Origin: Pseudomonadales bacterium
GTDB lineage: Bacteria > Pseudomonadota > Gammaproteobacteria > Pseudomonadales > Pseudohongiellaceae
Length of the DNA stretch: 64,000 nucleotides
Direction of reading: 5' to 3'
NCBI GenBank assembly: GCA_036405915.1
Contig: DASWWP010000053.1
Location: forward strand, 26,343-90,342
Positions 10,844 through 63,041 of this stretch are shown here, one piece after another (within the stretch, counting starts at the first letter, position 1; the number at the start of each line of letters is the position of its first letter). A program made the translations under genes and the position numbers. Under the pieces are notes generated by a model, which worked only from the letters and a program-made list of their open reading frames with translations, had not been told where the DNA came from and searched no databases.

Positions 10844-11958
10844 AACGCACTCTCACGCTGCTCGCCGTCGCGCTGTGCAGCACTGCGCTGTTCGCGCAAC
10901 CACCGCTCGGCCTGCCCGAGCTGAAAATTCCCGAAAACAATCCGCAGACGCCGGAGAAGATCGCGCTCGGCGAGAAGCTGTTCAAGGACACGCGCTTCAG
11001 CAGTACCGGCACCATCAGCTGCGCCAGCTGCCACGCGCCGGACAAGGCGTTCACCGATGAAACCGGCCCGCTGCTCGTGTCGCTCGGCATCAACGGCCTG
11101 ACTGGCACGCGCAACGCGCCGACCGTCGTCAATGCTGCCTACAACCGCACGCAGTTCTGGGATGGCCGCTCCCCCGACCTCGAAGACCAGGCCCAGCATC
11201 CGTTCCTGAATCCCGTCGAAATGGGCCTGGCGAACCACGACCCGATCATCGAAGTCGTGCGCAACGATCGCGACTACTCACGCGCCTTCGAGCAGGTGTT
11301 CGGCGTCAGTGGCGACGAAATCACGATGGAGCACGTCAAGATGGCGATCGCCTCGTTCGAACGCACGGCGATCGCCGGCAACAGTCCCTTTGACCGCTGG
11401 TACTTCGCCGGCGAGGACGACGCCATCAGTGAAGAAGCGAAGCGCGGCTTCGACGTGTTCCTGAAGCAGGGCCGCTGCGTATCCTGCCATGCGATGGAGC
11501 AGGATCATGCGCTGTTCACCGATCACAAGTTCCACAACATCGGTATCGGCATCAGCAACATCACGGACCGCGTGCCCGACCTCGCCGGCGCCTTCCTCGA
11601 AGCGAAAGCCGAAGGCGCCGACGTCGACGTCACTGTGCTGACCGACGCCGACACCTCGCACCTGGGTCGCTTCGCGGTAAGCGAGGAGTTCGGCGACATC
11701 GGCCAGTTCAAGACACCGACGCTGCGCAACGTCGCTGTCACGCCGCCCTACATGCACGACGGCAGCCTTGCGACACTGCGCGACGTGGTCGTGCACTACA
11801 ACAACGGCGGCGTCACGAATCCCGACGACCCGGTGACGCCGTACCTCAGCGGTGGCATACGGCCGCTGAACCTCACGGAGCAGCAGATCGACGACCTGGT
11901 CGCGTTCATGGAGTCGCTGACCAGCCCTGAATTTGCGACAGCAGGAGCCCTGCCATGA
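10840..11958 (+). CDS. Di-haem cytochrome c peroxidase (CCP/MauG family)
   Basis: Signal peptide. Two CxxCH (CASCH, CVSCH). FKTPTLRNV, PYMHDGS. ATGA start/stop overlap with the rhodanese gene. Confidence 0.9.
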   Translation: MKRTLTLLAVALCSTALFAQPPLGLPELKIPENNPQTPEKIALGEKLFKDTRFSSTGTISCASCHAPDKAFTDETGPLLVSLGINGLTGTRNAPTVVNAAYNRTQFWDGRSPDLEDQAQHPFLNPVEMGLANHDPIIEVVRNDRDYSRAFEQVFGVSGDEITMEHVKMAIASFERTAIAGNSPFDRWYFAGEDDAISEEAKRGFDVFLKQGRCVSCHAMEQDHALFTDHKFHNIGIGISNITDRVPDLAGAFLEAKAEGADVDVTVLTDADTSHLGRFAVSEEFGDIGQFKTPTLRNVAVTPPYMHDGSLATLRDVVVHYNNGGVTNPDDPVTPYLSGGIRPLNLTEQQIDDLVAFMESLTSPEFATAGALP

Positions 11959-41135: not shown

Positions 41136-41274
41136 GCCCCCCGCTTTCCTGCACACCGAGGGTCTGTCCCCGCACAAGTTCGGTCTTTTTCCCAATACCG
41201 CGGCGGAACTCATCCACGCATCCTTCGCGCAGGTTCATCTCTTTAGCCGATAAGCATTTCCGAGGACCACGCCC

Positions 41275-51535: not shown

Positions 51536-51667
51536 CCTCGCGCGCAGGCAACACCTGAACCTCGAGCGTGATCGCTCGACCAAAAATGCGTGGATCACCT
51601 CAGTGATCAGCAGAGCTCGACGCGAAATACTCGCGCCCCACCACAGGTTCACAAGGGGACACTCCAC

Positions 51668-52561
51668 ATGAAAGCTCTGTTTGCCGCTGGCCTTCTGTTC
51701 GCATCCGCTACCGCGCTCGCACAGCCCGTCGCATGGCCGTATGCCGAGGAAGAAGGCATCCACTGGATCGAAGGGAAGACCGTCAACATCACCTATTCGC
51801 ATACCGACGCACCGGCGACCGTGACGCAGGCGATGGCGAACCAGGTGCTGGCCGACGTCGAGGCGCGTTTGAACGGCCTCGGCATCTCGGGACTGAACGT
51901 AACGATCGGGCGCCGTGACATCACGACGGCCTGTTCGTACCGCGAACGCAACTCGGTCCATATCTGCTGGGAACCGCGTGACGGCCGCCGCGCCGACTCG
52001 ATCAACACCGGTTACACCGACGGCAGCGAATTCTGGCGCGAAGGCCTCATCATCCTCGGCAACCAGGCCGACTGGACGGACCAGACGCGTCCGCTGTACC
52101 AGCAGGTGCAGCACTATCTGCTGCACATCCTCGGCTTCGCCCATCCGGAACGCGAACCCGATCGCGCCATTTCCGTCATCAACAACAACTCGCTGGACCT
52201 GACCCAGCTCGACATCGACGGCCTGCGCACGATGTACGGCGGCGGCCGCTGCGCGTTGCGGTATGAATCCAACGGCACCGTGCGCGTCCCGTTCGTGATG
52301 TACCAGGGCAGCGCCTACACCGCGCGTCTGCAGCACGACGGCGGCCGTGGCCTGACGATCGTGCCGGGCAGCCTCGGCCGCTACGGCAACGCCAGCTTCA
52401 ACGTCAGCAAGCCGATTCCGACTACGCCGTGCCACGGCCTTTCGATCGACGGAAGCGGCGAATTCCATGTTCCCGAAGTATGGATCGGCGGGCAGTTGCG
52501 CTGGGCCACGCTGCGGATGGCGAACGGCGGATTCACCGTCACGAATTCGGGCGTGAAATAA
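51668..52561 (+). CDS. Secreted matrixin-like (metzincin-like) protein with HYxxHxxGxxH motif, copy 1
   Basis: Part of ORF 51590..52561. Signal peptide MKALFAAGLLFASATALAQP. IHWIEGKTVNITYS, QHYLLHILGFAHP, LDIDGLRTMYG. Unassigned ~110-aa C-terminal domain. Confidence 0.6.
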   Translation: MKALFAAGLLFASATALAQPVAWPYAEEEGIHWIEGKTVNITYSHTDAPATVTQAMANQVLADVEARLNGLGISGLNVTIGRRDITTACSYRERNSVHICWEPRDGRRADSINTGYTDGSEFWREGLIILGNQADWTDQTRPLYQQVQHYLLHILGFAHPEREPDRAISVINNNSLDLTQLDIDGLRTMYGGGRCALRYESNGTVRVPFVMYQGSAYTARLQHDGGRGLTIVPGSLGRYGNASFNVSKPIPTTPCHGLSIDGSGEFHVPEVWIGGQLRWATLRMANGGFTVTNSGVK

Positions 52562-52619
52562 CGCGCCGCGCCGTACCGGAATCCATACTCACAACAAACT
52601 ACATATGCGGGGATCCATC

Positions 52620-53474
52620 ATGAAATTGTCAGCCTCCTGTTTATTCGCAGCAGCAACGCTCGTGTCCGGCATCGCGTTCGCGCAGCCGGCGCCCTACTCG
52701 GCCCAGGAACGCATCCACTGGATCGATGGCCAAACGGTGACGATCACGTACTCGCCCGCCGGCGCGCCGGCGCAGGTATCGAGCGCAGCGGCAGCCAAGG
52801 TGCTTGCCGACATCGAGGCGAAATTCGACAGCCTCGGCATCGCCGGCCTCGACGTCGCGATCGGCAACCGCGAAGTCGCGAATGGCTGTGCCGGCGTGGG
52901 CCGCAATACCGTGCACATCTGCTGGGAGCCGCGCACCGGCACGACGGCAGACGCACGCAACACCGGCAATACCGACGGTTCGGTGTTCTGGCGCGAAGGC
53001 ACGATCATCCTGTCTTCGTCGACGACGTGGACCGAAGCATCTGTATACGCGACGCTTATGCACTACATGCTGCACGTGCTCGGCTTCGGCCATCCGGTGG
53101 GGGACTCCGTGCAGAACGGCGCGGCAGACCTGACGGCGCTCGACATCAGCGGCCTGCAGACGATGTATGGCGCCGGCTCCTGCGCGCTGACCTATGACGC
53201 GACCCTGCGCCAGGTGGAAATTCCGTTCGTGAAATATCGCGGCGGCACGTATACCGCGCGGCTGCAGCACAATGGCGGCAACGACTTCACGATCGTGCCT
53301 GGCAGCATTGGCATGCTGAATTCGGCGAACATGCCGACTTCGCGCTGCCATGGCCTCGCGATCGACGCCAACAACGACCTGTACATCCCGCAGGTGAACG
53401 TCGGTAACAGCCTGTTCTGGGCCAACCTGCGATTCGAGAATGGCCGCCTGACGCTGACCGGCCGCGGCCAGTAA
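52620..53474 (+). CDS. Secreted matrixin-like (metzincin-like) protein with HYxxHxxGxxH motif, copy 2
   Basis: Part of ORF 52605..53474. Signal peptide MKLSASCLFAAATLVSGIAFAQP. IHWIDGQTVTITYS, MHYMLHVLGFGHP, LDISGLQTMYG. Collinear with copy 1. Confidence 0.6.
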   Translation: MKLSASCLFAAATLVSGIAFAQPAPYSAQERIHWIDGQTVTITYSPAGAPAQVSSAAAAKVLADIEAKFDSLGIAGLDVAIGNREVANGCAGVGRNTVHICWEPRTGTTADARNTGNTDGSVFWREGTIILSSSTTWTEASVYATLMHYMLHVLGFGHPVGDSVQNGAADLTALDISGLQTMYGAGSCALTYDATLRQVEIPFVKYRGGTYTARLQHNGGNDFTIVPGSIGMLNSANMPTSRCHGLAIDANNDLYIPQVNVGNSLFWANLRFENGRLTLTGRGQ

Positions 53475-53550
53475 CCACGCCACACGAAATCGGGGCCAGT
53501 CCTGCATCGATCGACGTTCGATCGGTGCGGGGCTGGCCCCGAACTCATTT

Positions 53551-53979
53551 TCAGGCCCTTTTGATTGCCGCCCAGAACGTCGCGCGCACGAGCGTGTGCC
53601 CGGGCCGGCTTTCGATCCGGAATTCATCGGCCATGCGGTTGATGCCGGGCAGGCCGAGGCCTGGATCGCCCGAGCTCGAGTAGCCGGCGAGCATCGCCTC
53701 GTTCAGGTCGGCGATGCCGGGGCCCTCGTCCCATGCCACGATGCTGAGTCCCGCGCGCGAGCCATTCGAACAGAAGCCGAGCCGGATCTCGCCGGTTTTC
53801 GCGTACGTGAGGATGTTGCGTGCGAGTTCGGAGATGGCGGTCGTGACCATCAGCACGCGCGGGGCGGGAAATTCGAGTTGCAGCGCAAGCGCCCTGCCTT
53901 CGGCGCGCGCCTGTGCGATCACGTCGACGCTGCCGGGTTCCTCGAGGCGGAAACGGGTGAGCGTCTGCAAATCCGTCAT
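53551..53979 (-). CDS. Orphan RsbT-type serine kinase (HATPase_c_2) paralogue
   Basis: TAISELARNILTYAKTGEI, DEGPGIADL, GYSSSGDPGLGLPGINRMADEF. About half the positions match the operon-encoded RsbT at 58872..59351 by eye. Confidence 0.8.
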   Translation of the reverse strand: MTDLQTLTRFRLEEPGSVDVIAQARAEGRALALQLEFPAPRVLMVTTAISELARNILTYAKTGEIRLGFCSNGSRAGLSIVAWDEGPGIADLNEAMLAGYSSSGDPGLGLPGINRMADEFRIESRPGHTLVRATFWAAIKRA

Positions 53980-53992
53980 AGTTGAAACGCAT

Positions 53993-54026
53993 GCGGGGAC
54001 AGACCGGTATCCCGATCTGTCCCCGC
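53993..54026 (-). terminator. 11-bp perfect hairpin between the 992-aa gene and the orphan rsbT-like gene (terminator, attenuator or RNA-stability element)
   Basis: GCGGGGACAGA (53993-54003) / TCTGTCCCCGC (54016-54026). Only 13 nt separate it from the downstream ATG and no strong U-run follows. Confidence 0.4.
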
Positions 54027-54052
54027 CCCTTGGTCTTGCGGTTGTAGTGCTG

Positions 54053-57031
54053 TTACTGCGCGCGAATCACGGCGTCCTTGACGGTGCCGCCCACCGAGTA
54101 CAACAGTGCGGCGGCGCGCAGCGTCGTCGTGGCCCGCGCAGGGCTCGAGTAGAACGCTACACCATTCTTCACGTAGCTGACGACACCATTTTCCACGGTG
54201 ATACGTAACGTATCGCCTTCGTTGAACGTGGTGTCGGCCATGTACTTGCCGCTGTCACGCGCTTCGGCGATGTTGCCCTGCAGGCGCAGGCTGTAGGCAA
54301 GCGTGGCGCCGTCGGAGCTCAGGCCGATGTAACGTACCTTGTCTTCGACCGTCGCGCTGATCTGCATGGAGCCGTTGCCGTTCTCGATGCTCTGCGTTGC
54401 AACTGCCATCGCATCGGCGCAACCGTCGCAGCCGGCGCTCTTGCGCACGCGGCCTTCTTCGGCCGTCACGTTGATGAGGTTGCTCCAGGTCACCGCGCTG
54501 ACCGGCGTCGCGATCTGCGCGCCGGCGATGCCGCTGCCCGTCGAGTACAACGCCACGTCGCCGCGCAGTACGGCAGCCGGTGCCGCGGTGCTGGTGTAGA
54601 ACACCGTGCCGTTCTTCGCGTAATTCACCTTGCCGCCGTCCACAGTGATACGGAACACATCGCCAGCGACGAAGGTCGTATCCCACTTGTACACGCCGTT
54701 TTCACGCACTTCCACAGCGGTGCCCTGCAGGCGCAGTGCATAGTCGATGTCCAGTGCGGTCGGGCCGGTATTACGCGCGCCGAGGCCGATGAAGCGCAGG
54801 CTGTCTTCGACCGTGGCGGTGAACTCCAGGTAGCCGCGGCCTTCGATTTTCTGCATCGATACCGCGCCCGCGTCGGAACAACCGTCGCAACCGCTCATCT
54901 TGCGCACCCAGCCGTTCGCGTCGCCGAAGGTATTGACGGTTTCCGTCCACGCGATCGGGGCAGGCGTACCGGACAGCGGCGTGCCGGCCGTGATGGTGTA
55001 GTCGGGCGAAGTCGCGACGTTGCCGGCGGCATCGCGCGAGCGCACGCGGTAGTGGTAGACCTTACCCGGCGAGAGGCCGGCCAGTTCGACAGCGTGGTGC
55101 ATGTCGAACGTGGCGCTGATCGTCGTTACCCGCTCGTACGCGGTCGTCAGTCCGTACTCGACGCGCTGCTGTGCGGGTTCGTTCGTCGACCAGTTCACTT
55201 TCACGCTGCTCGAGCCCGTGTTCGTCGCGCGGATGTTCGTCAGCAGCGGCGCGGCCAGGTCCTCACCACCGACGTTCGGCAGCAGGCCCGGCGTCGTGAA
55301 GGTCTGGTTGGCCGAGTAGCTTGCATTGCCGTCCGCATCGGCCGACTGCACGCGGTAGTGGTACGTCGTGCTCGGCTTGAGACCCATCAGGATGTGGGCG
55401 TGCGTCGTGCCGGTCTTGGCGCCGAGCGAGGCCGTCAGGCCGTACGCGGTCGTCGTGCCGTATTCGATGCTGCCGTCGGTGACTTCGCTCGTCTGCCATG
55501 CAATCGCAGCGGCGTTGCTGGTGATCAGGCCGGCGCTGACGTTGCTGATCTGCGGCGGCGTTGCGTCGCCCGTTTTCGACGGCCACGTCGGCGCGGGAGC
55601 CGGAACAGGCAGTGTCGGAGTGGCTTCCGATCCTGGCGCGGGAGCCGGTGCCGGGGCGGGAGCCGTGATCGGCGCGCCGTTCGTCAGCAATTGCGACGGC
55701 ACTTTCACGAGGAAGGCGTCGAGGCGCGAGCCGCCCATGTTGCTGGTCCAGATGAAGTACTGGCCGGTGACGTCGAGGTTGCCCTTAGGCATGTTGTCGT
55801 AGTCGTCGGTCTTGCGGCTGTCGAGGTTCGTCATGACGGGCGCGACGACCAGCGTGCGGCCCGAGCCATCGAGCATGAAGCAGACGATTTCGTTCGATTC
55901 GCCAGCGTTGCGGCGGTTCGCGCTGCTGCCGCAGGAATACTGCGATGCCGGGCTCGCGTTCAATGCGTTCGTGTGCGTGACGTGGTTCGGCGCGCCGACG
56001 TTCCAGTCGGTGTTCGAATACGCGACTACACCGCTCAGCGTGCTCTTGTTGAAGTCCCAGACTTTCCAGGTGTTCGCTTTCGGCGCCCAGTTGTCGTTCG
56101 CCACCATGTAGCCGAAACCGAGGTCGGAATGGCCGCCGGCGCCGTCACTGTCGCGCAGCAGGCGTTCGCTGCCGGTCGCGAGGTCGATGATGCGGTTGTC
56201 TTCACCTTCGGCGCCGTCGACGTTTTCCTTGATCACGAGCCACTTGCCGCTCCTGTCGATCTGGCACTCGTCGTAGTCGCCCTTCTTCGGGAAGTACTGC
56301 AATTTGCCGGTGTCGGTTTCATAAGCCATGCAGCCCAGCGACGCGTAGGTCGTCGAGTCCTTGATCGTGGCCGAATGCACGCGGTCGTCGTTGCTCGAAT
56401 GGATCTGGAAAACGATGCGGTTCGCGCCGAGCTTGGCGGATACGTCGACGATGGTCTCGTACTGCTTCGTCATCACGTCATAGCGCAGGATCTTCGAGCC
56501 GGAGTGCAGGTAGATCTTGGTCGGTAGTGTCGCGCTGAAGTAATAGCCTTCGCCGCTGGCACCGGAATACGCCGTGTTCGAATCGAAAACGGGGCCGAGG
56601 TTCGTCAGTTGCTCGGTGACCTTGTTGTACTGCAGCAGCGTCAAACCGGCGCCGCCCTTGGTCTTGTTCAGCCCGATCATGATCAGCATCGTGTCCTTGC
56701 CGACATGGTTGTTGATGTTGCGCCAGTACGAATAGCCAATCGCGCTGACGCAGTCGGCGCCGCCGCAATCGGCGGCATTCGTCAGGCGCACGCCCTGCGT
56801 GTTGTAGGGCGCCGGGAACGTGAACTTGCCCTTGCTTGGAAGGAAGGAATTTATCTGCGACGGCGACAGCAGCGGCTCGACGACGTTGCTCAGCGTGGCT
56901 GGCAATTCGACGAATCCGCCGAGCACCTGGGACTGCGCTGCGACGGGAGCAAGGCTGAAGAGAAGCGAGAAAACTGATGGAACGAGCGTATGGGCGCGGA
57001 GGAGGCGCGCCGCCGGTGGAAACGAAAACAT
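54053..57031 (-). CDS. Large secreted multidomain protein: propeller-like N domain, Pro/Ala linker, two Fn3 domains, two LamG/concanavalin-like repeats
   Basis: 992 aa. Signal peptide (..APVAAQ|SQ). aa ~35-450 unassigned, beta-rich. APITAPAPAPAPAPG linker. Two Fn3 units (IEYGTTTAYG..TTYHYRVQSADADGN and VEYGLTTAYE..KVYHYRVRSRDAAGN). Two ~150-aa C-terminal repeats. Confidence 0.8.
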   Translation of the reverse strand: MFSFPPAARLLRAHTLVPSVFSLLFSLAPVAAQSQVLGGFVELPATLSNVVEPLLSPSQINSFLPSKGKFTFPAPYNTQGVRLTNAADCGGADCVSAIGYSYWRNINNHVGKDTMLIMIGLNKTKGGAGLTLLQYNKVTEQLTNLGPVFDSNTAYSGASGEGYYFSATLPTKIYLHSGSKILRYDVMTKQYETIVDVSAKLGANRIVFQIHSSNDDRVHSATIKDSTTYASLGCMAYETDTGKLQYFPKKGDYDECQIDRSGKWLVIKENVDGAEGEDNRIIDLATGSERLLRDSDGAGGHSDLGFGYMVANDNWAPKANTWKVWDFNKSTLSGVVAYSNTDWNVGAPNHVTHTNALNASPASQYSCGSSANRRNAGESNEIVCFMLDGSGRTLVVAPVMTNLDSRKTDDYDNMPKGNLDVTGQYFIWTSNMGGSRLDAFLVKVPSQLLTNGAPITAPAPAPAPAPGSEATPTLPVPAPAPTWPSKTGDATPPQISNVSAGLITSNAAAIAWQTSEVTDGSIEYGTTTAYGLTASLGAKTGTTHAHILMGLKPSTTYHYRVQSADADGNASYSANQTFTTPGLLPNVGGEDLAAPLLTNIRATNTGSSSVKVNWSTNEPAQQRVEYGLTTAYERVTTISATFDMHHAVELAGLSPGKVYHYRVRSRDAAGNVATSPDYTITAGTPLSGTPAPIAWTETVNTFGDANGWVRKMSGCDGCSDAGAVSMQKIEGRGYLEFTATVEDSLRFIGLGARNTGPTALDIDYALRLQGTAVEVRENGVYKWDTTFVAGDVFRITVDGGKVNYAKNGTVFYTSTAAPAAVLRGDVALYSTGSGIAGAQIATPVSAVTWSNLINVTAEEGRVRKSAGCDGCADAMAVATQSIENGNGSMQISATVEDKVRYIGLSSDGATLAYSLRLQGNIAEARDSGKYMADTTFNEGDTLRITVENGVVSYVKNGVAFYSSPARATTTLRAAALLYSVGGTVKDAVIRAQ
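54056..54955 (-). repeat. Internal tandem duplication encoding two ~150-aa domains, each with a GCDGC motif
   Basis: GWVRKMSGCDGCSDAGAVSMQKIE..ATVEDSLRFIGL..YALRLQG..FRITVDGGKVNYAKNGTVFY versus GRVRKSAGCDGCADAMAVATQSIE..ATVEDKVRYIGL..YSLRLQG..LRITVENGVVSYVKNGVAFY. Confidence 0.8.
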
Positions 57032-57181
57032 TGAAGAACCTCGGGGGCTTTTATAATCGGTGGTGTCGGGTGTTTTATTGCTCGCGAGGTATGCCCACCC
57101 CTGCTAGCGGGGCTTTTTATACTGGACACTTGAAACATATTTATGACGTGGATGTAACACAGTGGTAAAACACCGTCTGAT

Positions 57182-57202
57182 TGTGGCCACTTTGTGACCA
57201 CA
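57182..57202. promoter_or_regulatory. Near-perfect 9-3-9 inverted repeat TGTGGCCAC-TTT-GTGACCACA in the divergent control region
   Basis: Read directly. One mismatch. Sits between the divergent 992-aa gene and rsbR. Confidence 0.3.
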
Positions 57203-57522
57203 CTCACGTTACAAGACTGAGGTACAAAAGAGTGGGGAACCTTTGCCCGATCTGCTTGACGCGACGTGGCGTTTGGCGCCAGCAAAGGCCCTCCGGCAGG
57301 GGTTCTTGCAGGCCTTTCCCCGATGCCTTTTCGGGTATTCGCCTGATATAGCACAGGAAGGGACCCTAGTAGTTTGCCGCCCACACTGCGGTCGGTCCGG
57401 ATGGAAAATAACCCTAATGGCGCTACGGTATTGCCGTAGCAGGGTCCCGGCGGAACCGCAGGCGGGTTCAGGCAGCTTTCTGAAACCGGCAACAAGCAAA
57501 TTCAAAACAGGGTGATTGCGAT

Positions 57523-58497
57523 ATGAGAGACGACAAAGAAGGAAAACGCGGCCTGGCCCCCGTAAAGACGGCGCGGCGCGTAGGGCAGCGGCCACAGTAT
57601 CTGGCCAGTGAGGAGCTGTTGAGCCCGCCTGTCGATGAATCCTACATTGAAGTTCTGCGCGAACTCGTCGCTCACCTGCGCCAGAAGCGTACCGAACTGC
57701 GCGAGGAATGGGCCCGCCGCATCATGCAGGCGCGACTGTTGAAGGCGATGACCGAGGACGAGATCCTCGCCGAGTGTTCGGCCGTATACGACAACTACCT
57801 CGGTACGCTCGAAACCGGTTCGCTCGAAGCCCTCGAAGCCTACGCTCGCGACCTTTCCGAACGCATCATTCCGCGTGGCGTCGAAACGCATGAGGTACTC
57901 GGCATCGTACTGCTGCTGAGGGACGTACTCGCCCGCTCGCTGTTCGCGAAGTACGGCCACAACGAAAGCATCCTGTTCCGCGTACTCGACGCGTACGAAC
58001 CGGCTGCAAACAGGATCGCAAACACGGTGGCCGTCGGCTTCGTGCAGGAGCGCGAACGCGTCATCCGCCAGCAGCAGGAAGCCATTCGCGAACTGTCGAC
58101 TCCAGTATTGCCGGTACGCGAACGCCTGCTGATTCTTCCCATCATCGGCATCATCGATCCGCAGCGCGCGCGCCAGCTTACTGAACAGGTACTGCGCGGC
58201 ATCCGCGTGAACCGCGCACGCGTCGTCGTAATGGACCTCACCGGCGTACCGTCGGTCGACGCGGCCGTTGCAAACCATCTTGTCCAGACCGTGGAAGCCT
58301 CGCGCCTCGTCGGCGCGAACGTGATCGTGACGGGCCTGTCGCCCGAACTGTCGCAGACCCTCGTCACGATCGGCGTGGACCTCGGCAAGATGTTCACGGT
58401 GGGCGACCTCCAGGGCGGTATCGAAGAAGCCGAAAAACTCCTCGGCTACAAGGTCGTACCGATGAATCCCAAAAACGACTTCTCGTCGGTAGGCTAA
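57523..58497 (+). CDS. rsbR: RsbR-type stressosome sensor (N-terminal helical sensor domain + C-terminal STAS)
   Basis: ELSTPVLPVRERLLILPIIGIIDPQRARQLTEQVL, VVVMDLTGVPSVDAAVANHL, GANVIVTGLSPELSQTLV. Confidence 0.85.
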   Translation: MRDDKEGKRGLAPVKTARRVGQRPQYLASEELLSPPVDESYIEVLRELVAHLRQKRTELREEWARRIMQARLLKAMTEDEILAECSAVYDNYLGTLETGSLEALEAYARDLSERIIPRGVETHEVLGIVLLLRDVLARSLFAKYGHNESILFRVLDAYEPAANRIANTVAVGFVQERERVIRQQQEAIRELSTPVLPVRERLLILPIIGIIDPQRARQLTEQVLRGIRVNRARVVVMDLTGVPSVDAAVANHLVQTVEASRLVGANVIVTGLSPELSQTLVTIGVDLGKMFTVGDLQGGIEEAEKLLGYKVVPMNPKNDFSSVG

Positions 58498-58501
58498 GGC
58501 T

Positions 58502-58879
58502 GTGGAAATCCCAATTCTCAAACAGCGGGATTATCTGATCGCATCGGTGCAGTCCGTACTGACCGACGAGGATCTGGTGAATCTGCGCGACAAGCTTGTC
58601 CAGCAGGTGGGCCGCTACCGTTCCGACGGCGTGATCCTCGACGTAACCGGCATGGATGTAATCGATTCCTTCTCCGTGCGCACGCTTCGCGACCTTGCGC
58701 ACATGATTCGCCTGCGCGGCGCGACGACCGTGATCGTCGGCATCCAGCCCGAGGTTGCCTTTTCGATGATCCAGCTCGGCCTGCGCCTGAAAGACGTGCC
58801 GACCGCCCTGGATCTCGAGGAAGGCCTCGCGTATCTCGACCGCAAGAAAGGGAAAAGGACGCTGCCGCCGCATGAGTGA
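58502..58879 (+). CDS. rsbS: RsbS-type STAS-domain stressosome scaffold / antagonist
   Basis: GTG start. IPILKQRDYLIASVQSVLTDEDL, VILDVTGMDVIDSFSVRTL (conserved Ser), VIVGIQPEVAFSMIQLG. Confidence 0.85.
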   Translation: MEIPILKQRDYLIASVQSVLTDEDLVNLRDKLVQQVGRYRSDGVILDVTGMDVIDSFSVRTLRDLAHMIRLRGATTVIVGIQPEVAFSMIQLGLRLKDVPTALDLEEGLAYLDRKKGKRTLPPHE

Positions 58880-59351
58880 GAAACCACCCAGCCTGCCTTT
58901 CGGGTCAGGAGGCGCCGGTACGATTCCCGGCGGCAAGAACAGCCCCCGCGACGTGCGCGTAGAAGCACGGGTCACGATCAAGGCTGTCGAAGACATCGTG
59001 GAAGCACGGCAAAAAGGCCGCGCACTGGCGCAGGAGCTCGGGTTCTCGATGACCCAGTCCACGCTCGTCGCGACCGCCATTTCCGAGCTCGCACGCAACA
59101 TCGTGCTGTATGCGAAGACCGGCGAAATCATCCTCTCGCGCGTCAGCACGGATCATCACGTAGGCCTCATCATCATCGCCGCGGACAAAGGTCCCGGCAT
59201 AGCCAATATCCAGCATGCGCTGATGAGCGGTTATTCCTCGTCCGGCGGGCTTGGCCTCGGCCTTCCCGGCGTTCGGCAGATGGTCGACGAGTTCGACATC
59301 AAGAGCCGCCCGGGCGAAGGGACGCAGGTTACCGCGCTGATGTGGTTGTAA
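58872..59351 (+). CDS. rsbT: RsbT-type serine/threonine kinase
   Basis: Overlaps the rsbS end by 8 nt. TAISELARNIVLYAKTGEI, DKGPGIANI, GYSSSGGLGLGLPGVRQMVDEF. Confidence 0.88.
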   Translation: MSEKPPSLPFGSGGAGTIPGGKNSPRDVRVEARVTIKAVEDIVEARQKGRALAQELGFSMTQSTLVATAISELARNIVLYAKTGEIILSRVSTDHHVGLIIIAADKGPGIANIQHALMSGYSSSGGLGLGLPGVRQMVDEFDIKSRPGEGTQVTALMWL

Positions 59352-59379
59352 GGCGCGTGCGCGCGAAGGACGGCAGGGA

Positions 59380-59988
59380 ATGAAGAAGACCGGCATCGTG
59401 GAGTGGTCGGTGCGAGAACGCACGCTTCCCGGAGAGACCTATTCCGGCGACCGCTGCCTCGTGAAGGAAGTTTGGGAAGGCGTACTGATCGCCGTCATCG
59501 ACGGCATCGGGCACGGCGAAGAAGCTGCGAAGGCGGCCGACTGCGCGGTGGCCACGATCGAAGAGAACGCCGACCGCTCGTTTTCGCTGCTGCTGCAGAA
59601 ATGCCATGCGAACCTGCAGAAGACGCGCGGTGTCGTCATGAGCCTCGCGTACGTCGATGACCAGAGAACGATGACGTGGATGGGCGTCGGCAACGTGGAA
59701 GGCCGGCTTATCCGGCGCCGCATACAGTACTCGGACAAGACCGAGGCACTGCTGCTGCGCACCGGCGTCATCGGCGGCGATGCGGAGTTCACGCCGAGCT
59801 TCTACCCGCGAGGGCTCGCGCTCGTGCGTGGCGACCTGCTGATCATGGCGACCGATGGCATCAGGAGCGACTTCGACGTCGATGTCGACATCGCCTCGGG
59901 TCCCCGGCGGATCGCGGACGATATCATCGAAAACAAGTGCAAACCGAATGATGACGCACTGGTCTTCGTCGGCCGGTATACCGGATAG
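59380..59988 (+). CDS. rsbX: RsbX-like PP2C/SpoIIE-family phosphatase
   Basis: 202 aa. SGDRCLV, IAVIDGIGHGEEAA, LIMATDGI, DDALVFVGRY. Confidence 0.8.
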   Translation: MKKTGIVEWSVRERTLPGETYSGDRCLVKEVWEGVLIAVIDGIGHGEEAAKAADCAVATIEENADRSFSLLLQKCHANLQKTRGVVMSLAYVDDQRTMTWMGVGNVEGRLIRRRIQYSDKTEALLLRTGVIGGDAEFTPSFYPRGLALVRGDLLIMATDGIRSDFDVDVDIASGPRRIADDIIENKCKPNDDALVFVGRYTG

Positions 59989-59996
59989 AACCTGGG

Positions 59997-60932
59997 ATGG
60001 GGATCCAACTGAACGTGGCCGAGAACCTGAACGACTTTTCCAGCCAGTATCAGAAGATGCTGAAGAGATACCTGCTGGAGGGCGGCGAAGAATATTTGCA
60101 CGGCGCGTACGAGCTCGGGCGCAAGGCGCTGGGCGGCGGGCTGGGCCTGCTCGACATCACGTATGCACACCAGGCCGCATTGCCCGTGCTGCTGCAGAAT
60201 ACCGAAGACGACCGGTTCCTGCTGCTCGTGCGCGCAGCCAACCGCTTTCTCGACGAGACGCTGTCACCATTCGAAGTCTCGCGCCTGAGCAGCATGGATG
60301 CGAACTCCGCGCTGCGGCGCCTGTACGATGTGCTGGAAGAAGAAGCCAAGCGCATCGCGCACGTGCTTCATGACGATGCCTCGCAGCTGCTCGCGGTGGC
60401 CTACCTGGAACTCGCGGACATCGTGCGCACGTCGCCGGGCCCGGTGGCCGAACGCGTCGGCGTCGTCATCACGCACCTCGACGAGATACGCGAACAGATT
60501 CGCCGGCTGTCGCACGAACTGCGGCCGCTGATTCTCGACCAGCTTGGCCTCGTGCCGGCCCTGAACTTCCTCGCGAACGGCTTCACGAAGCGCTCGAGCC
60601 TCCAGATCGTGATCACAGGCGATACCGGCGGCCGCCTGCCGCAGGCCATCGAGACGGTGCTGTATCGCTGCGTGCAGGAGGCCCTGAACAACGTGAACCG
60701 CCATGCAAAGGCGACACGCGTGGACATCAAGGTGTGGGTCGAGGACGAATGCATCCACTGCGTCGTGCGCGACAACGGAGTTGGTTTTGAGGTACCCGAG
60801 GACCGGAAACGCATGTTCCGCGGCCTCGGTCTGGTAGGCATACATGAGCGCGTGGGTGCGCTCCATGGTGAATGCAAACTTTCATCCGCTCCTGGAGAGG
60901 GAACGGAACTGCAGGTGGTGATCCCGCTATGA
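59997..60932 (+). CDS. Soluble histidine kinase: RsbU_N-like N-terminal domain + HisKA_3 + HATPase_c
   Basis: N-terminus FSSQYQKMLKRYLLEGGEEYLHGAYELGRKAL...DITYAHQAALPVLL parallels my recollection of the RsbU N-terminal (RsbT-binding) domain. H-box RIAHVLHDDASQLL. N-box QEALNNVNRHA. G-box DNGVGF, GLGLVGIHERV. No TM segment. Confidence 0.8.
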   Translation: MGIQLNVAENLNDFSSQYQKMLKRYLLEGGEEYLHGAYELGRKALGGGLGLLDITYAHQAALPVLLQNTEDDRFLLLVRAANRFLDETLSPFEVSRLSSMDANSALRRLYDVLEEEAKRIAHVLHDDASQLLAVAYLELADIVRTSPGPVAERVGVVITHLDEIREQIRRLSHELRPLILDQLGLVPALNFLANGFTKRSSLQIVITGDTGGRLPQAIETVLYRCVQEALNNVNRHAKATRVDIKVWVEDECIHCVVRDNGVGFEVPEDRKRMFRGLGLVGIHERVGALHGECKLSSAPGEGTELQVVIPL

Positions 60933-61573
60933 ACGTAGACATGAAGAAACACATCGTACTTGCCGACGACCATTCCATGTTCCGCCAGGGCCTGGCCGCG
61001 CTTCTCGAACGGGAAGGCTTCCACGTCGTGGGCCAGGCCACCAACGGCCACGAAGCGATCCAGCTCGTGCAGCAGCACAAACCGCTGCTCGCGATCCTCG
61101 ACTTCGGCATGCCGCTGCTGAACGGCATCGACGCCGCGCGCGAGATCCACAAGCGCGCACCGGATACGCAGGTATTGCTCCTCACGATGTTCGAGGACGA
61201 TGCCTATGTGCTCGAGGCTCTGCGTGCCGGCATCCGTGGCTACGTGCTGAAGGCGCAGGCCGCGCGCGACCTGATCAATGCGATCAGCGAAATCCTGCGA
61301 GGTTCGATCTACCTCAGCCCCGGCATCTCCGAGGCGGTGGTGAAGGCCTACATGTCGAAGGACGAACAGCCCGCGGAAGTGCTGACCGATCGCGAACGCC
61401 AGGTGCTGCAGCTGATCGCCGAAGGGCATACGACGAAGAAGACGGCGTCGCTGCTCGACCTCAGCGTCAAGACCGCCGAGTCGCATCGCACGCGCATCAT
61501 GCAGAAGCTCGACATTCACGACACGGCGGGCCTCGTGCGCTACGCAATCCGCCGCGGCCTGATCAAGCCCTGA
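60929..61573 (+). CDS. NarL/FixJ (LuxR-type HTH) response regulator 1
   Basis: ATGA overlap with the kinase gene. LADDHSMFRQGL, ILDFGMP, LLLTMF, YVLK, LTDRERQVLQLIAEGHTTKKTA. Confidence 0.9.
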   Translation: MNVDMKKHIVLADDHSMFRQGLAALLEREGFHVVGQATNGHEAIQLVQQHKPLLAILDFGMPLLNGIDAAREIHKRAPDTQVLLLTMFEDDAYVLEALRAGIRGYVLKAQAARDLINAISEILRGSIYLSPGISEAVVKAYMSKDEQPAEVLTDRERQVLQLIAEGHTTKKTASLLDLSVKTAESHRTRIMQKLDIHDTAGLVRYAIRRGLIKP

Positions 61574-61610: not shown

Positions 61611-62255
61611 ATGATACGGATTCTGCTGGCGGACGATCACGCGTTGTACCGCGAAGGACTGCGCCTGCTCCTCGAGCGGGCCGGCTCGTTCACGATCGTC
61701 GGCGAAGCAGCCGACGGCGGCGAAGCCGTGCGCCTCGCCTTCGAACTGCTGCCTGACGTGATCCTGCTGGACATCAGCATGCCGGTTTACAACGGCATCG
61801 AAGCGACGGCGCGGATCCGCAAGGCCTGGCCGCACGCCAAGATCGTGCTGCTATCTATGCATGAAGACGAAACGACGATCCTCGAAGCCCTGAAGGCCGG
61901 CGTGAACGGCTACGTGTTCAAGACGCAGACGGAGCGCGACCTCGTGCACACGATCGAAGTCGTCGCGGACGGCGCATTCTTCCTTGGCCCGAACATTCCG
62001 CACAGCGTGATCGACGCGCTGACGCACAATGCGTCGCATGTATCCGATGCGCTGACGGAGCGCGAACAGCAGATCGTCGCGCTGATCGCTGACGGGAAAA
62101 CCTCGCGTGAGATCGCGGAGATCCTTCACCTGAGCCCGAAAACCATCGAGTCGCACCGCGCGCGAATCATGCAGAAATTGAAGCTCCAGCAGACGACCCA
62201 GCTCGTCTGTTACGCCGTGCGCGCGCAGATGCAGCGTCTCGCACCTCTTCGTTAA
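61611..62255 (+). CDS. NarL/FixJ (LuxR-type HTH) response regulator 2
   Basis: LADDHALYREGL, LLDISMP, VLLSMH, YVFK, LTEREQQIVALIADGKTSREIA. Confidence 0.9.
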   Translation: MIRILLADDHALYREGLRLLLERAGSFTIVGEAADGGEAVRLAFELLPDVILLDISMPVYNGIEATARIRKAWPHAKIVLLSMHEDETTILEALKAGVNGYVFKTQTERDLVHTIEVVADGAFFLGPNIPHSVIDALTHNASHVSDALTEREQQIVALIADGKTSREIAEILHLSPKTIESHRARIMQKLKLQQTTQLVCYAVRAQMQRLAPLR

Positions 62256-62408
62256 CGAAGCGTTGCCTCGCTAGGGTCTTTTCCCCCGCCGCTCTCAGGC
62301 ACATTTCCGGGCTGAAAGCAGGCATTTCCCGCTGTGATGAGCTGCGTTACACGAGTACCTTTTCACCCGTTTCAGGGAATTCCTCAACAACAACTCAGGA
62401 GTGCTTTC

Positions 62409-63041
62409 ATGCGCATCATCCTTGCTGACGACCACACAATGTTCCGCCGCAGCCTCGCCCAACTCCTCGAGAGGGAAGGCTTTGAAATCATGGCGGAGGC
62501 TTCTGACGGGATGGAAACTGTCGCACTGGCCGCAAAACTCGACCCCGACGCCGTCGTATGCGACATGAACATGCCGCACCTCAACGGTGTCGAAGTAACC
62601 CGCGAACTGCAACGCCAGGGGCTGCGCGCGAAAACCGTGATCCTGACGATGTTCGAAGACGATGTCAGCGTACGTGAAGCACTGCGTGCCGGCGCCACCG
62701 GCTACGTCCTGAAGACCCAGGCCCCGACGGACCTCGTCCAGGCCCTGCGCGAACTCGCCGATGGCCATCGTTACCTGAGCCCCGGCATCACGAATTCCGT
62801 CGTCGACGCGTGCCTGCGCCGTAACGACGACGAGGACCAGGCCGACGCCCTGACCTCGCGCGAGCGCCAGATCCTGCAGCTCGTTGCCGAAGGCAACGCC
62901 ACGAAGGAAATCGCCCGCCTGCTCAATCTCACGATCAAGACCGTCGAATCGCATCGCAGCCGCCTGATGCGCAAGCTCGACACCGGCAACATCGCAGGCC
63001 TCGTACGCCACGCGGTGCGCCAGGGCATCATCCGTCCGTAA
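62409..63041 (+). CDS. NarL/FixJ (LuxR-type HTH) response regulator 3
   Basis: Part of ORF 62334..63041. AGGAG before ATG 62409. LADDHTMFRRSL, VCDMNMP, VILTMF, YVLK, LTSRERQILQLVAEGNATKEIA. Confidence 0.9.
   Translation: MRIILADDHTMFRRSLAQLLEREGFEIMAEASDGMETVALAAKLDPDAVVCDMNMPHLNGVEVTRELQRQGLRAKTVILTMFEDDVSVREALRAGATGYVLKTQAPTDLVQALRELADGHRYLSPGITNSVVDACLRRNDDEDQADALTSRERQILQLVAEGNATKEIARLLNLTIKTVESHRSRLMRKLDTGNIAGLVRHAVRQGIIRP

Follow-up and report, generated by a model that had tools for sequence, protein, structure and literature searches.

A second RsbT-family kinase gene behind a secreted propeller protein gene, divergent from a stressosome operon, in an uncultured Pseudomonadales bacterium

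The output of the partner-switch kinase RsbT is set by how much of the protein is free and how much is sequestered, and signalling by RsbT is possible without the stressosome (PMC11821858). The closest described counterparts of the locus reported here are the Gram-negative rsbRSTX two-component modules, for example that of Vibrio vulnificus, in which an rsbR-S-T-X core is followed by signalling proteins, some of them carrying an RsbU_N domain thought to receive RsbT; the target genes of these published modules were not defined from the locus (PMC9237108). We have analysed a stretch of 64,000 nucleotides (hereafter the window; contig DASWWP010000053.1 of assembly GCA_036405915.1, positions 26,343 to 90,342) from a Pseudomonadales bacterium of the family Pseudohongiellaceae, which holds such a core followed by signalling genes. 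Unlike the Vibrio-type modules, it adds a second gene of the RsbT family (the orphan, rsbT2), a conserved secreted protein (designated BIG) and a conserved operator-like element in the BIG promoter. RsbT, rsbRSTX and RsbU_N-bearing outputs are thus known parts (PMC9237108), and what appears to be new is their wiring, with a second RsbT placed in the putative output operon. The organism is known from metagenomes only, and the evidence throughout is comparative.

A sequence-only reading of the window had proposed that a second RsbT paralogue lies 73 nt behind a 992-aa gene, on the same strand, and head-to-head with rsbRSTX. This geometry was reproduced from the list of open reading frames (ORFs), the sequence and Pfam: the 142-aa orphan follows BIG after exactly 73 nt, and 491 nt separate the BIG start from the divergent start of rsbR (coordinates in Table 1). 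The paralogy was likewise confirmed, by a Pfam HATPase_c_2 match (1.4e-10, residues 21-134) and by 55% identity over 121 residues to the canonical RsbT of the same locus. In common with the RsbT proteins of Bacillus and Listeria, the orphan product belongs to the GHKL fold family and has intact ATP-binding motifs, namely an N-box (E51..N55), a G1 box (D84-E-G-P-G88) and a G2 box (G107-L-G-L-P-G112), all invariant in its clade, which also retains the N-terminal helix motif AR..GR.LA..L.F. It is a single-domain GHKL/HATPase_c_2 protein within the RsbT size range of about 130-160 aa, its nearest relatives include the co-resident RsbT of the rsbR-rsbS-rsbT order, and its database relatives are named RsbT by JGI. 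It differs from the Bacillus and Listeria proteins in its setting: RsbT genes lie directly downstream of rsbS, whereas the orphan follows BIG, on the strand opposite to rsbR and at a distance of 3.5 kb from it, as the apparent tail gene of a secreted-protein operon, and it forms a separate clade with substitutions of its own. With the sequence features of RsbT present and the adjacency to rsbS absent, we file it as an RsbT-family paralogue. Searched against the PDB, its sequence gave nothing at 1e-3, and its profile matched SpoIIAB-type anti-sigma F kinases only, which are its nearest solved relatives.

A database search returned about 25 clusters of orphan orthologues (70-94% identity), all metagenomic and with the frame and motifs intact; below these, the canonical RsbTs follow after a drop in identity to 56% or less. 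In a neighbour-joining tree (the only method used) built from every RsbT-like ORF of the loci collected, the orphans formed a single clade with a bootstrap of 100/100, apart from the local canonical RsbT; this topology and its support rule out a recent duplication of the local rsbT. The clade carries a 3-residue insertion. Its N-terminus, MTDLQTLTRFR, is conserved, which fixes the start codon. The ratio of non-synonymous to synonymous substitution rates (dN/dS) was 0.10-0.19 for the orphan at dS 0.44-1.2, as compared with 0.057 for the canonical RsbT and 0.28 for BIG. By these comparisons the orphan is a real, old gene under purifying selection.

In every contig that holds the orphan and enough upstream DNA, the orphan comes immediately after a BIG homologue in the same orientation, which answers the check on recurrent synteny proposed with the sequence-only reading, and rsbRSTX is divergent from the pair wherever an orphan contig reaches far enough. 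A metagenome scan for further orphan loci added three short contigs only. How closely the two genes are coupled varies among the lineages: the junctions range from overlapping genes to gaps with or without a hairpin (Table 1), and a 20-nt gap was also seen. Given these junction states, an operon is the only economical reading. The dependence of the orphan on the upstream transcript, claimed beforehand, gains from the relatives, in which the two genes overlap or lie 4-20 nt apart, and comparison across loci indicates that the orphan is almost certainly expressed from the BIG transcript. As had also been stated, no obvious Shine-Dalgarno (SD) sequence precedes the window orphan: upstream of its ATG (CAUGCGUUUCAACUAUG) there is neither an AGGAG-like motif nor an earlier in-frame start codon. 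Judged on gene order and sequence conservation, it is quite probable that the orphan encodes a functional RsbT paralogue co-transcribed with BIG.

Between the two genes of the window stands a hairpin. It ends 13 nt before the orphan ATG, as claimed, but its stem, described beforehand as a perfect 11 bp, comprises 15 bp with one G-U pair, and the view of it as a near-filler of the gap gave way to a resemblance to the local terminators. In a sliding fold scan, used instead of an inverted-repeat tool whose output consisted mostly of low-complementarity palindromes, it was the most stable 40-nt fold of the window on either strand (-33.8 kcal/mol), and with its 15-bp stem it has the GC-rich stem-loop of an intrinsic terminator. 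The surrounding 101-nt region folds with z = -4.5, no shuffled sequence folding as well. Across the six hairpin-sharing junctions the stem is 76-97% identical to that of the window, as opposed to 47-54% for the adjacent spacer, 97.8% of the cells in the alignment are paired, and two pairs show compensatory changes. The conserved TGCGTT directly 3' of the stem is preceded by TTT in locus L001 and by TTTT in L093; the complete tails read AUGCGUUUC in the window, UUUGCGUUU in L001 and UUUUGCGUU in L093, and a consensus terminator scan did not call that of the window. The second most stable 40-nt fold of the window lies on the other side of the orphan, so that the two strongest local folds of the 64 kb flank this gene. 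There the terminator scan called a plus-strand site (53528-53541) with the tail AACTCATTTT, and this second hairpin is probably a bidirectional terminator. The intercistronic hairpin resembles it, and on the orphan strand the U-tract of the second hairpin is equally poor. With intra-operon terminators and attenuators the intercistronic element shares a stable GC-rich stem-loop between co-oriented genes, followed by a U-containing tail; it differs from them in the poverty of the window U-tract and in that related lineages have a junction without any hairpin. It looks like a leaky terminator or attenuator that would hold the kinase far below BIG, with read-through presumably reaching the orphan. 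Against Rfam, the window gave no match at the gathering score, and the junction gave none at E<=1. A repetitive extragenic palindromic (REP)-like or other mobile repeat was also considered and rejected, the 11-mer arm having one other exact match in the window (at 41163), where it lacks an inverted partner.

To place the pair in a wider context, we scanned one genome per GTDB species with a BIG profile and obtained 78 loci. An RsbT-like ORF was present within 10 kb in 29 of them, usually together with a kinase and regulators and either divergent from BIG or on the same strand. Mapping with the proteins of the window divided the loci into the classes given in Table 1, of which the window and the metagenome contigs L001-L006 represent class A with the orphan. 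Among the species genomes a downstream orphan occurs only in L012 and L013, by which the arrangement is confined to one lineage of uncultured Pseudomonadota. The 17 loci of class C, devoid of STAS genes within 10 kb, combine an RsbT-like gene with a HisKA_3 kinase gene and with one or two genes for LuxR regulators (about 6.7-9.9 kb where the locus is full-length); in L036 the RsbU_N domain of the kinase was found by Pfam. They look like natural stressosome-less RsbT modules.

Evidence that BIG is probably the output of this pathway came from its promoter. The divergent intergenic region was aligned between the window, L001, L012 and L013, the BIG proteins of which are only 61-67% identical, and the alignment nevertheless contains, as invariant blocks, a -10-like TATAAA, a direct repeat TTAC-N6-GTTAC and, upstream of it, a dyad (Table 1). 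Eight loci of classes A and C share a spacing of exactly 37 nt between GTTAC and TATAAA, which would put the repeat at roughly -45 to -63, a position typical of an activator site. The sole exact match to the repeat in the window is the one in the BIG promoter. Of the 28 exact matches in the 78 loci (2.8 Mb with both strands counted), 21 lie 211-324 nt before the start of a BIG propeller gene (binomial P ~7e-35), tandem second BIG copies included. The repeat was seen upstream of BIG genes in L010-L054; the 21 matches also include those before second BIG loci with no module within 10 kb, in metagenome-assembled genomes (MAGs) whose other BIG locus has the module (L041 with L037, L051 with L054). 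This distribution suggests a small regulon. As for the dyad, class B loci again have a GTGA-N5-9-TCAC upstream of BIG, at 60 nt from GTTAC; a search at N5 spacing missed the site in the BIG promoter, where the spacing is N4, and no enrichment is claimed for it. Since the LuxR regulators are DNA-binding proteins that recur in BIG loci, BIG is most likely their target, and we infer that they bind the TTAC-N6-GTTAC repeat.

The sequence-only reading had suggested that the orphan provides a feedback or competing input into the stressosome next door. The proposal is strengthened by the conserved operator-like promoter and by the recurrence of RsbT, kinase and LuxR neighbours in many taxa, on account of which BIG is probably the output of the pathway; the return step itself we still infer. 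Our best explanation, to which we give an even chance, is that rsbT2 would be the distal gene of a two-gene operon with BIG and that its product would feed back on the same switch. Under stress, the canonical RsbT (RsbT1) would be released from RsbR/RsbS and engage the RsbU_N domain of the kinase, and the phosphorylated LuxR regulator or regulators would activate the BIG-rsbT2 operon via the operator-like repeats. RsbT2 would then be made only when, and in proportion as, the output promoter fires, and the terminator-like hairpin together with a weak ribosome-binding site would keep its level far below that of BIG. The extra RsbT would act back on the same partner switch, either by adding RsbT beyond the sequestering capacity of RsbS/RsbR or by binding the RsbU_N domain of the kinase directly. 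Because output follows free versus sequestered RsbT (PMC11821858), additional RsbT would most simply reinforce the ON state, and positive feedback would be the most likely effect. Taken by itself, feedback of RsbT2 on the same pathway has, in our estimate, a little less than an even chance.

Several observations weigh against this explanation. The U-tract of the hairpin is poor, and the hairpin could nevertheless terminate transcription efficiently in this organism. The repeats could belong to another factor, and their restriction mainly to Gammaproteobacteria could partly reflect phylogeny. At otherwise conserved positions the orphan clade carries the specific changes D20V, V22A, L106P (in the G2 region) and T132R, which could alter the choice of partner. 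In L013 the orphan copy (11007-11110) is frameshifted by 1 nt after codon 31, which could reflect either an error of assembly or a pseudogene. Finally, the orphan is absent from the divergent rsbRSTX-BIG loci L015, L018, L029, L060 and L065, from which it follows that the system works without it.

It is also conceivable, though we regard it as unlikely, that RsbT2 is a parallel input. It would then activate the RsbU_N kinase, or some other target, independently of the stressosome, as the RsbT genes of the STAS-less modules would, and its place behind BIG would merely offer a convenient promoter. The 17 species loci with RsbT, kinase and regulator beside BIG and no STAS gene within 10 kb speak for it, as does the age of the orphan clade, which does not derive from the local canonical RsbT. 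It would also agree with the stressosome-independent signalling of B. subtilis RsbT (Khadka et al. 2025, PMC11821858), where RsbT with kinase activity drives output without RsbR/RsbS; that work used engineered deletions, whereas the loci considered here are natural ones with RsbT outside an rsbRS operon or without one. However, the orphans stand apart from the STAS-less RsbTs in the tree, a full rsbRSTX operon lies next door in every orphan locus with enough DNA, and, if the pathway drives the BIG promoter, any kinase activity of RsbT2 would be feedback by construction.

Somewhat less likely again is feedback of the opposite sign, in which RsbT2 would occupy RsbU_N without activating the kinase, or over-phosphorylate the damping site of RsbR, and so shut down the response after output. 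There is precedent: the feedback known for the Bacillus stressosome is negative and acts via sigma-B-dependent RsbX (PMC9237128). The likeness is that a pathway component made from its own output acts back on the stressosome; the difference is that RsbX is a phosphatase with a negative effect, whereas RsbT2 is a kinase paralogue with a presumptive link to the output. The clade-specific substitutions and a selection somewhat more relaxed than that on RsbT1 would also suit a competitor. Yet all kinase motifs and the AR..GR.LA..L.F helix motif are kept, the operon already has rsbX for resetting, and no feature marks RsbT2 as a non-activating binder.

Independent expression of the orphan, with the hairpin as a full terminator of BIG and a separately regulated promoter in the 3' end of BIG or in the gap, is improbable. 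The great stability of the hairpin and its likeness to the local terminators would be in keeping with it, and promoters may lie within coding regions, but the hairpin ends 13 nt before the ATG, the genes of relatives overlap or lie 4-20 nt apart, and the same-strand adjacency conserved in all contigs points to an operon. A sigma-70 scan of 53300-57700 gave no promoter-like site, although the evident BIG promoter was missed too and the scan is therefore uninformative. That the orphan is a silent, decaying duplicate stranded behind a terminator, as the frameshifted L013 copy and the lack of an SD in the window might suggest, is highly improbable in view of a dN/dS of 0.10-0.19 at dS up to about 1.2 and of a frame and motifs intact in about 25 orthologues.

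As for BIG itself, an AlphaFold2 model (112 homologues in the alignment, mean pLDDT 87.7) predicts a signal peptide, a seven-bladed beta-propeller (residues ~40-460), two Fn3 domains (495-580 and 597-681) and two jelly rolls (695-840 and 849-991); Pfam matched fn3 and Pur_ac_phosph_N, and 1199 homologues were found. The best single-domain Foldseek match of the propeller was the PL22 oligogalacturonate lyase (3pe7/3c5m; TM 0.68, E 1e-11), with which it shares the seven-bladed fold over about 376 residues. The likeness is structural only and comes from the model: sequence identity is 11%, Pfam gave no PL22 match, the BIG family profile gave no sequence match in the PDB, and BIG, unlike the lyase, is secreted with additional Fn3 and jelly-roll domains. 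The propeller has invariant His, Gln, Asp and Cys residues, among them H301, H350, H353 and Q364, which suggest that it may be an enzyme. The other side of the locus (below 51535) adjoins an exopolysaccharide cluster with GT4 and GT2 glycosyltransferases, an epimerase, a UDP-glucose/GDP-mannose dehydrogenase and a beta-helix protein. Owing to the PL22 match and these neighbours, the earlier description of BIG as adhesin-like is unsupported, and, on the predicted structure, a secreted polysaccharide-active enzyme is the better lead. It should be noted that the database call for BIG (957 aa) starts at GTG codon 36 (56927-57031 region) and thereby loses the signal peptide, while a start at the ATG at 57031 provides the protein with a typical Sec signal that ends in VAA-QS. 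Polysaccharide genes also adjoin unrelated rsbRSTX-RsbU_N kinase-LuxR loci, with Wza/Wzz/Wzy-type genes in L099 (12970-20423; Sulfurifustis sp.) and L101 (4478-8338; a Logan contig); these export and synthesis neighbours echo the exopolysaccharide cluster of the window.

In the divergent operon, Pfam identified RsbR, RsbS, RsbT and an RsbX-type PP2C phosphatase in the stressosome order across 57523-59988, followed by the RsbU_N histidine kinase, which is the presumed RsbT target. The first of the three regulators has Response_reg and GerE domains (Pfam), and the second and third were matched solely by phmmer similarity to the first. The ORF of the first regulator shares 61 nt (60872-60932) with the end of the kinase gene, and its true start is probably a downstream Met (MNVDMKKH, ~60929-60944). 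The STAS domain of RsbR (58150-58260) has Ala (GVPSVDAAVA) at the presumed position of Thr171 in B. subtilis RsbRA, and the equivalent of Thr205 is presumably kept (ELSQTLV). About 150 nt upstream of rsbR, an invariant 16-nt block on the rsbR strand (GACCCTAGTAGTTTGC; 57366-57381, +) is shared by the window, L001, L012 and L013; it may be an rsbR promoter or operator, and it did not match sigma-54 spacing. Convergent with the orphan are genes for two paralogous secreted proteins of ~290-320 aa (51590-52561 and 52605-53474, both +), with no match in Pfam or NCBIfam. Both carry H-Y-x-x-H-x-x-G-x-x-H, a metzincin-like zinc motif in which Tyr replaces the catalytic Glu, and one or both are conserved as convergent neighbours of the orphan in L001-L009 and L093-L095. 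A compositional island or horizontal transfer was rejected, GC content being 62-66% throughout the locus with no anomaly.

Table 1. Features of the window, forms of the BIG-orphan junction and classes of BIG loci (L and P numbers are our handles for loci and sequences)
Feature	Position or loci	Strand	Basis or remarks
Orphan, RsbT-family Ser/Thr switch kinase (RsbT2), 142 aa	53551..53979	-	Pfam, identity, motifs, dN/dS, clade
BIG, secreted, 992 aa	54053..57031	-	AlphaFold2, Foldseek, Pfam
Intercistronic hairpin, 15-bp stem (one G-U), GAUA loop	53993..54026	-	GCGGGGACAGAUCGG-GAUA-CCGGUCUGUCCCCGC
Conserved TGCGTT tail (weak U-tract) directly 3' of hairpin	53986..53991	-	6/6 hairpin-bearing junctions
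Hairpin between convergent orphan and pMZ1 genes	53497..53541	.	Second most stable 40-nt window fold, -31.9 kcal/mol (53497-53536)
-10-like TATAAA, putative BIG promoter, 90 nt before ATG	57116..57121	-	Invariant in window, L001, L012, L013
Direct repeat TTAC-N6-GTTAC, candidate response-regulator operator	57154..57168	-	Invariant in four-locus alignment
Dyad block TAACGTGA-N-GGTCACAAA (ACGTGA...GGTCAC), upstream of direct repeat	57191..57211	-	Conserved in window, L001, L012, L013
rsbR (RsbRD_N + STAS)	57523..58497	+	Pfam
rsbS (STAS)	58502..58879	+	Pfam
Canonical rsbT	58872..59351	+	Pfam; dN/dS 0.057
rsbX-like PP2C phosphatase	59380..59988	+	Pfam SpoIIE/PP2C_2
RsbU_N-HisKA_3-HATPase histidine kinase	59997..60932	+	Pfam RsbU_N 2.6e-9, HisKA_3, HATPase_c
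Three consecutive LuxR/GerE-type regulator genes	60872-61573, 61611-62255, 62334-63041	+	See text
Junction: ATGA overlap and conserved MSC[HY]FA extension	L007, P0013, P0014
Junction: called genes share one base	Contig of P0009
Junction: 4-nt gap, GGAGG within BIG 3' end	L013
Junction: 68-86 nt gap, same hairpin as window	L001, L091, L092, L093, L096
Junction: 53 or 87 nt gap, unrelated GC-rich hairpin	L008, L090
Class A: rsbRSTX-kinase-regulators divergent from BIG	With orphan L012, L013; without orphan L015, L018, L029, L060, L065
Class B: same operon upstream of one to three BIG copies, same strand	L043, L048, L052, L056, L062; cut by contig end L049, L057, L059
Class C: RsbT-kinase-regulator beside BIG, divergent except L034, no STAS gene within 10 kb	17 loci: L011, L016, L017, L027, L028, L030, L032, L034-L037, L042, L045, L046, L050, L054, L055
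Class alone: BIG without module	Mostly Acidobacteriota

In the literature available for searching, we met with no description of a stressosome locus that has a second RsbT, of a second RsbT wired to an output operon, of a BIG-type secreted neighbour or of STAS-less RsbT-kinase modules. To our knowledge, the targets of stressosomes outside the Firmicutes, and the way their output is shaped, are largely unknown. BIG is a candidate target gene with a defined candidate operator and offers a reporter readout for the stressosome-kinase-LuxR cascade. If the explanation given above is true, a natural second RsbT placed on the output would be a feedback design undescribed for partner-switch pathways. 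A second RsbT also bears on the recent claim that RsbT itself, and not the stressosome, is the sensor, and the natural STAS-less modules provide a setting for that claim outside engineered Bacillus strains. The combination of a lyase-like secreted enzyme with exopolysaccharide genes suggests matrix remodelling as the physiological output. More broadly, and only tentatively, the secreted PL22-like propeller family may be a dedicated target of RsbT to RsbU_N kinase to LuxR cascades acting via TTAC-N6-GTTAC, both in Gammaproteobacteria and in some further phyla; STAS proteins would be lacking from many such cascades, with RsbT as the sensor, and in one lineage a second RsbT would have been brought into the target operon, giving a self-reinforcing switch from stress sensing to remodelling of the exopolysaccharide matrix.

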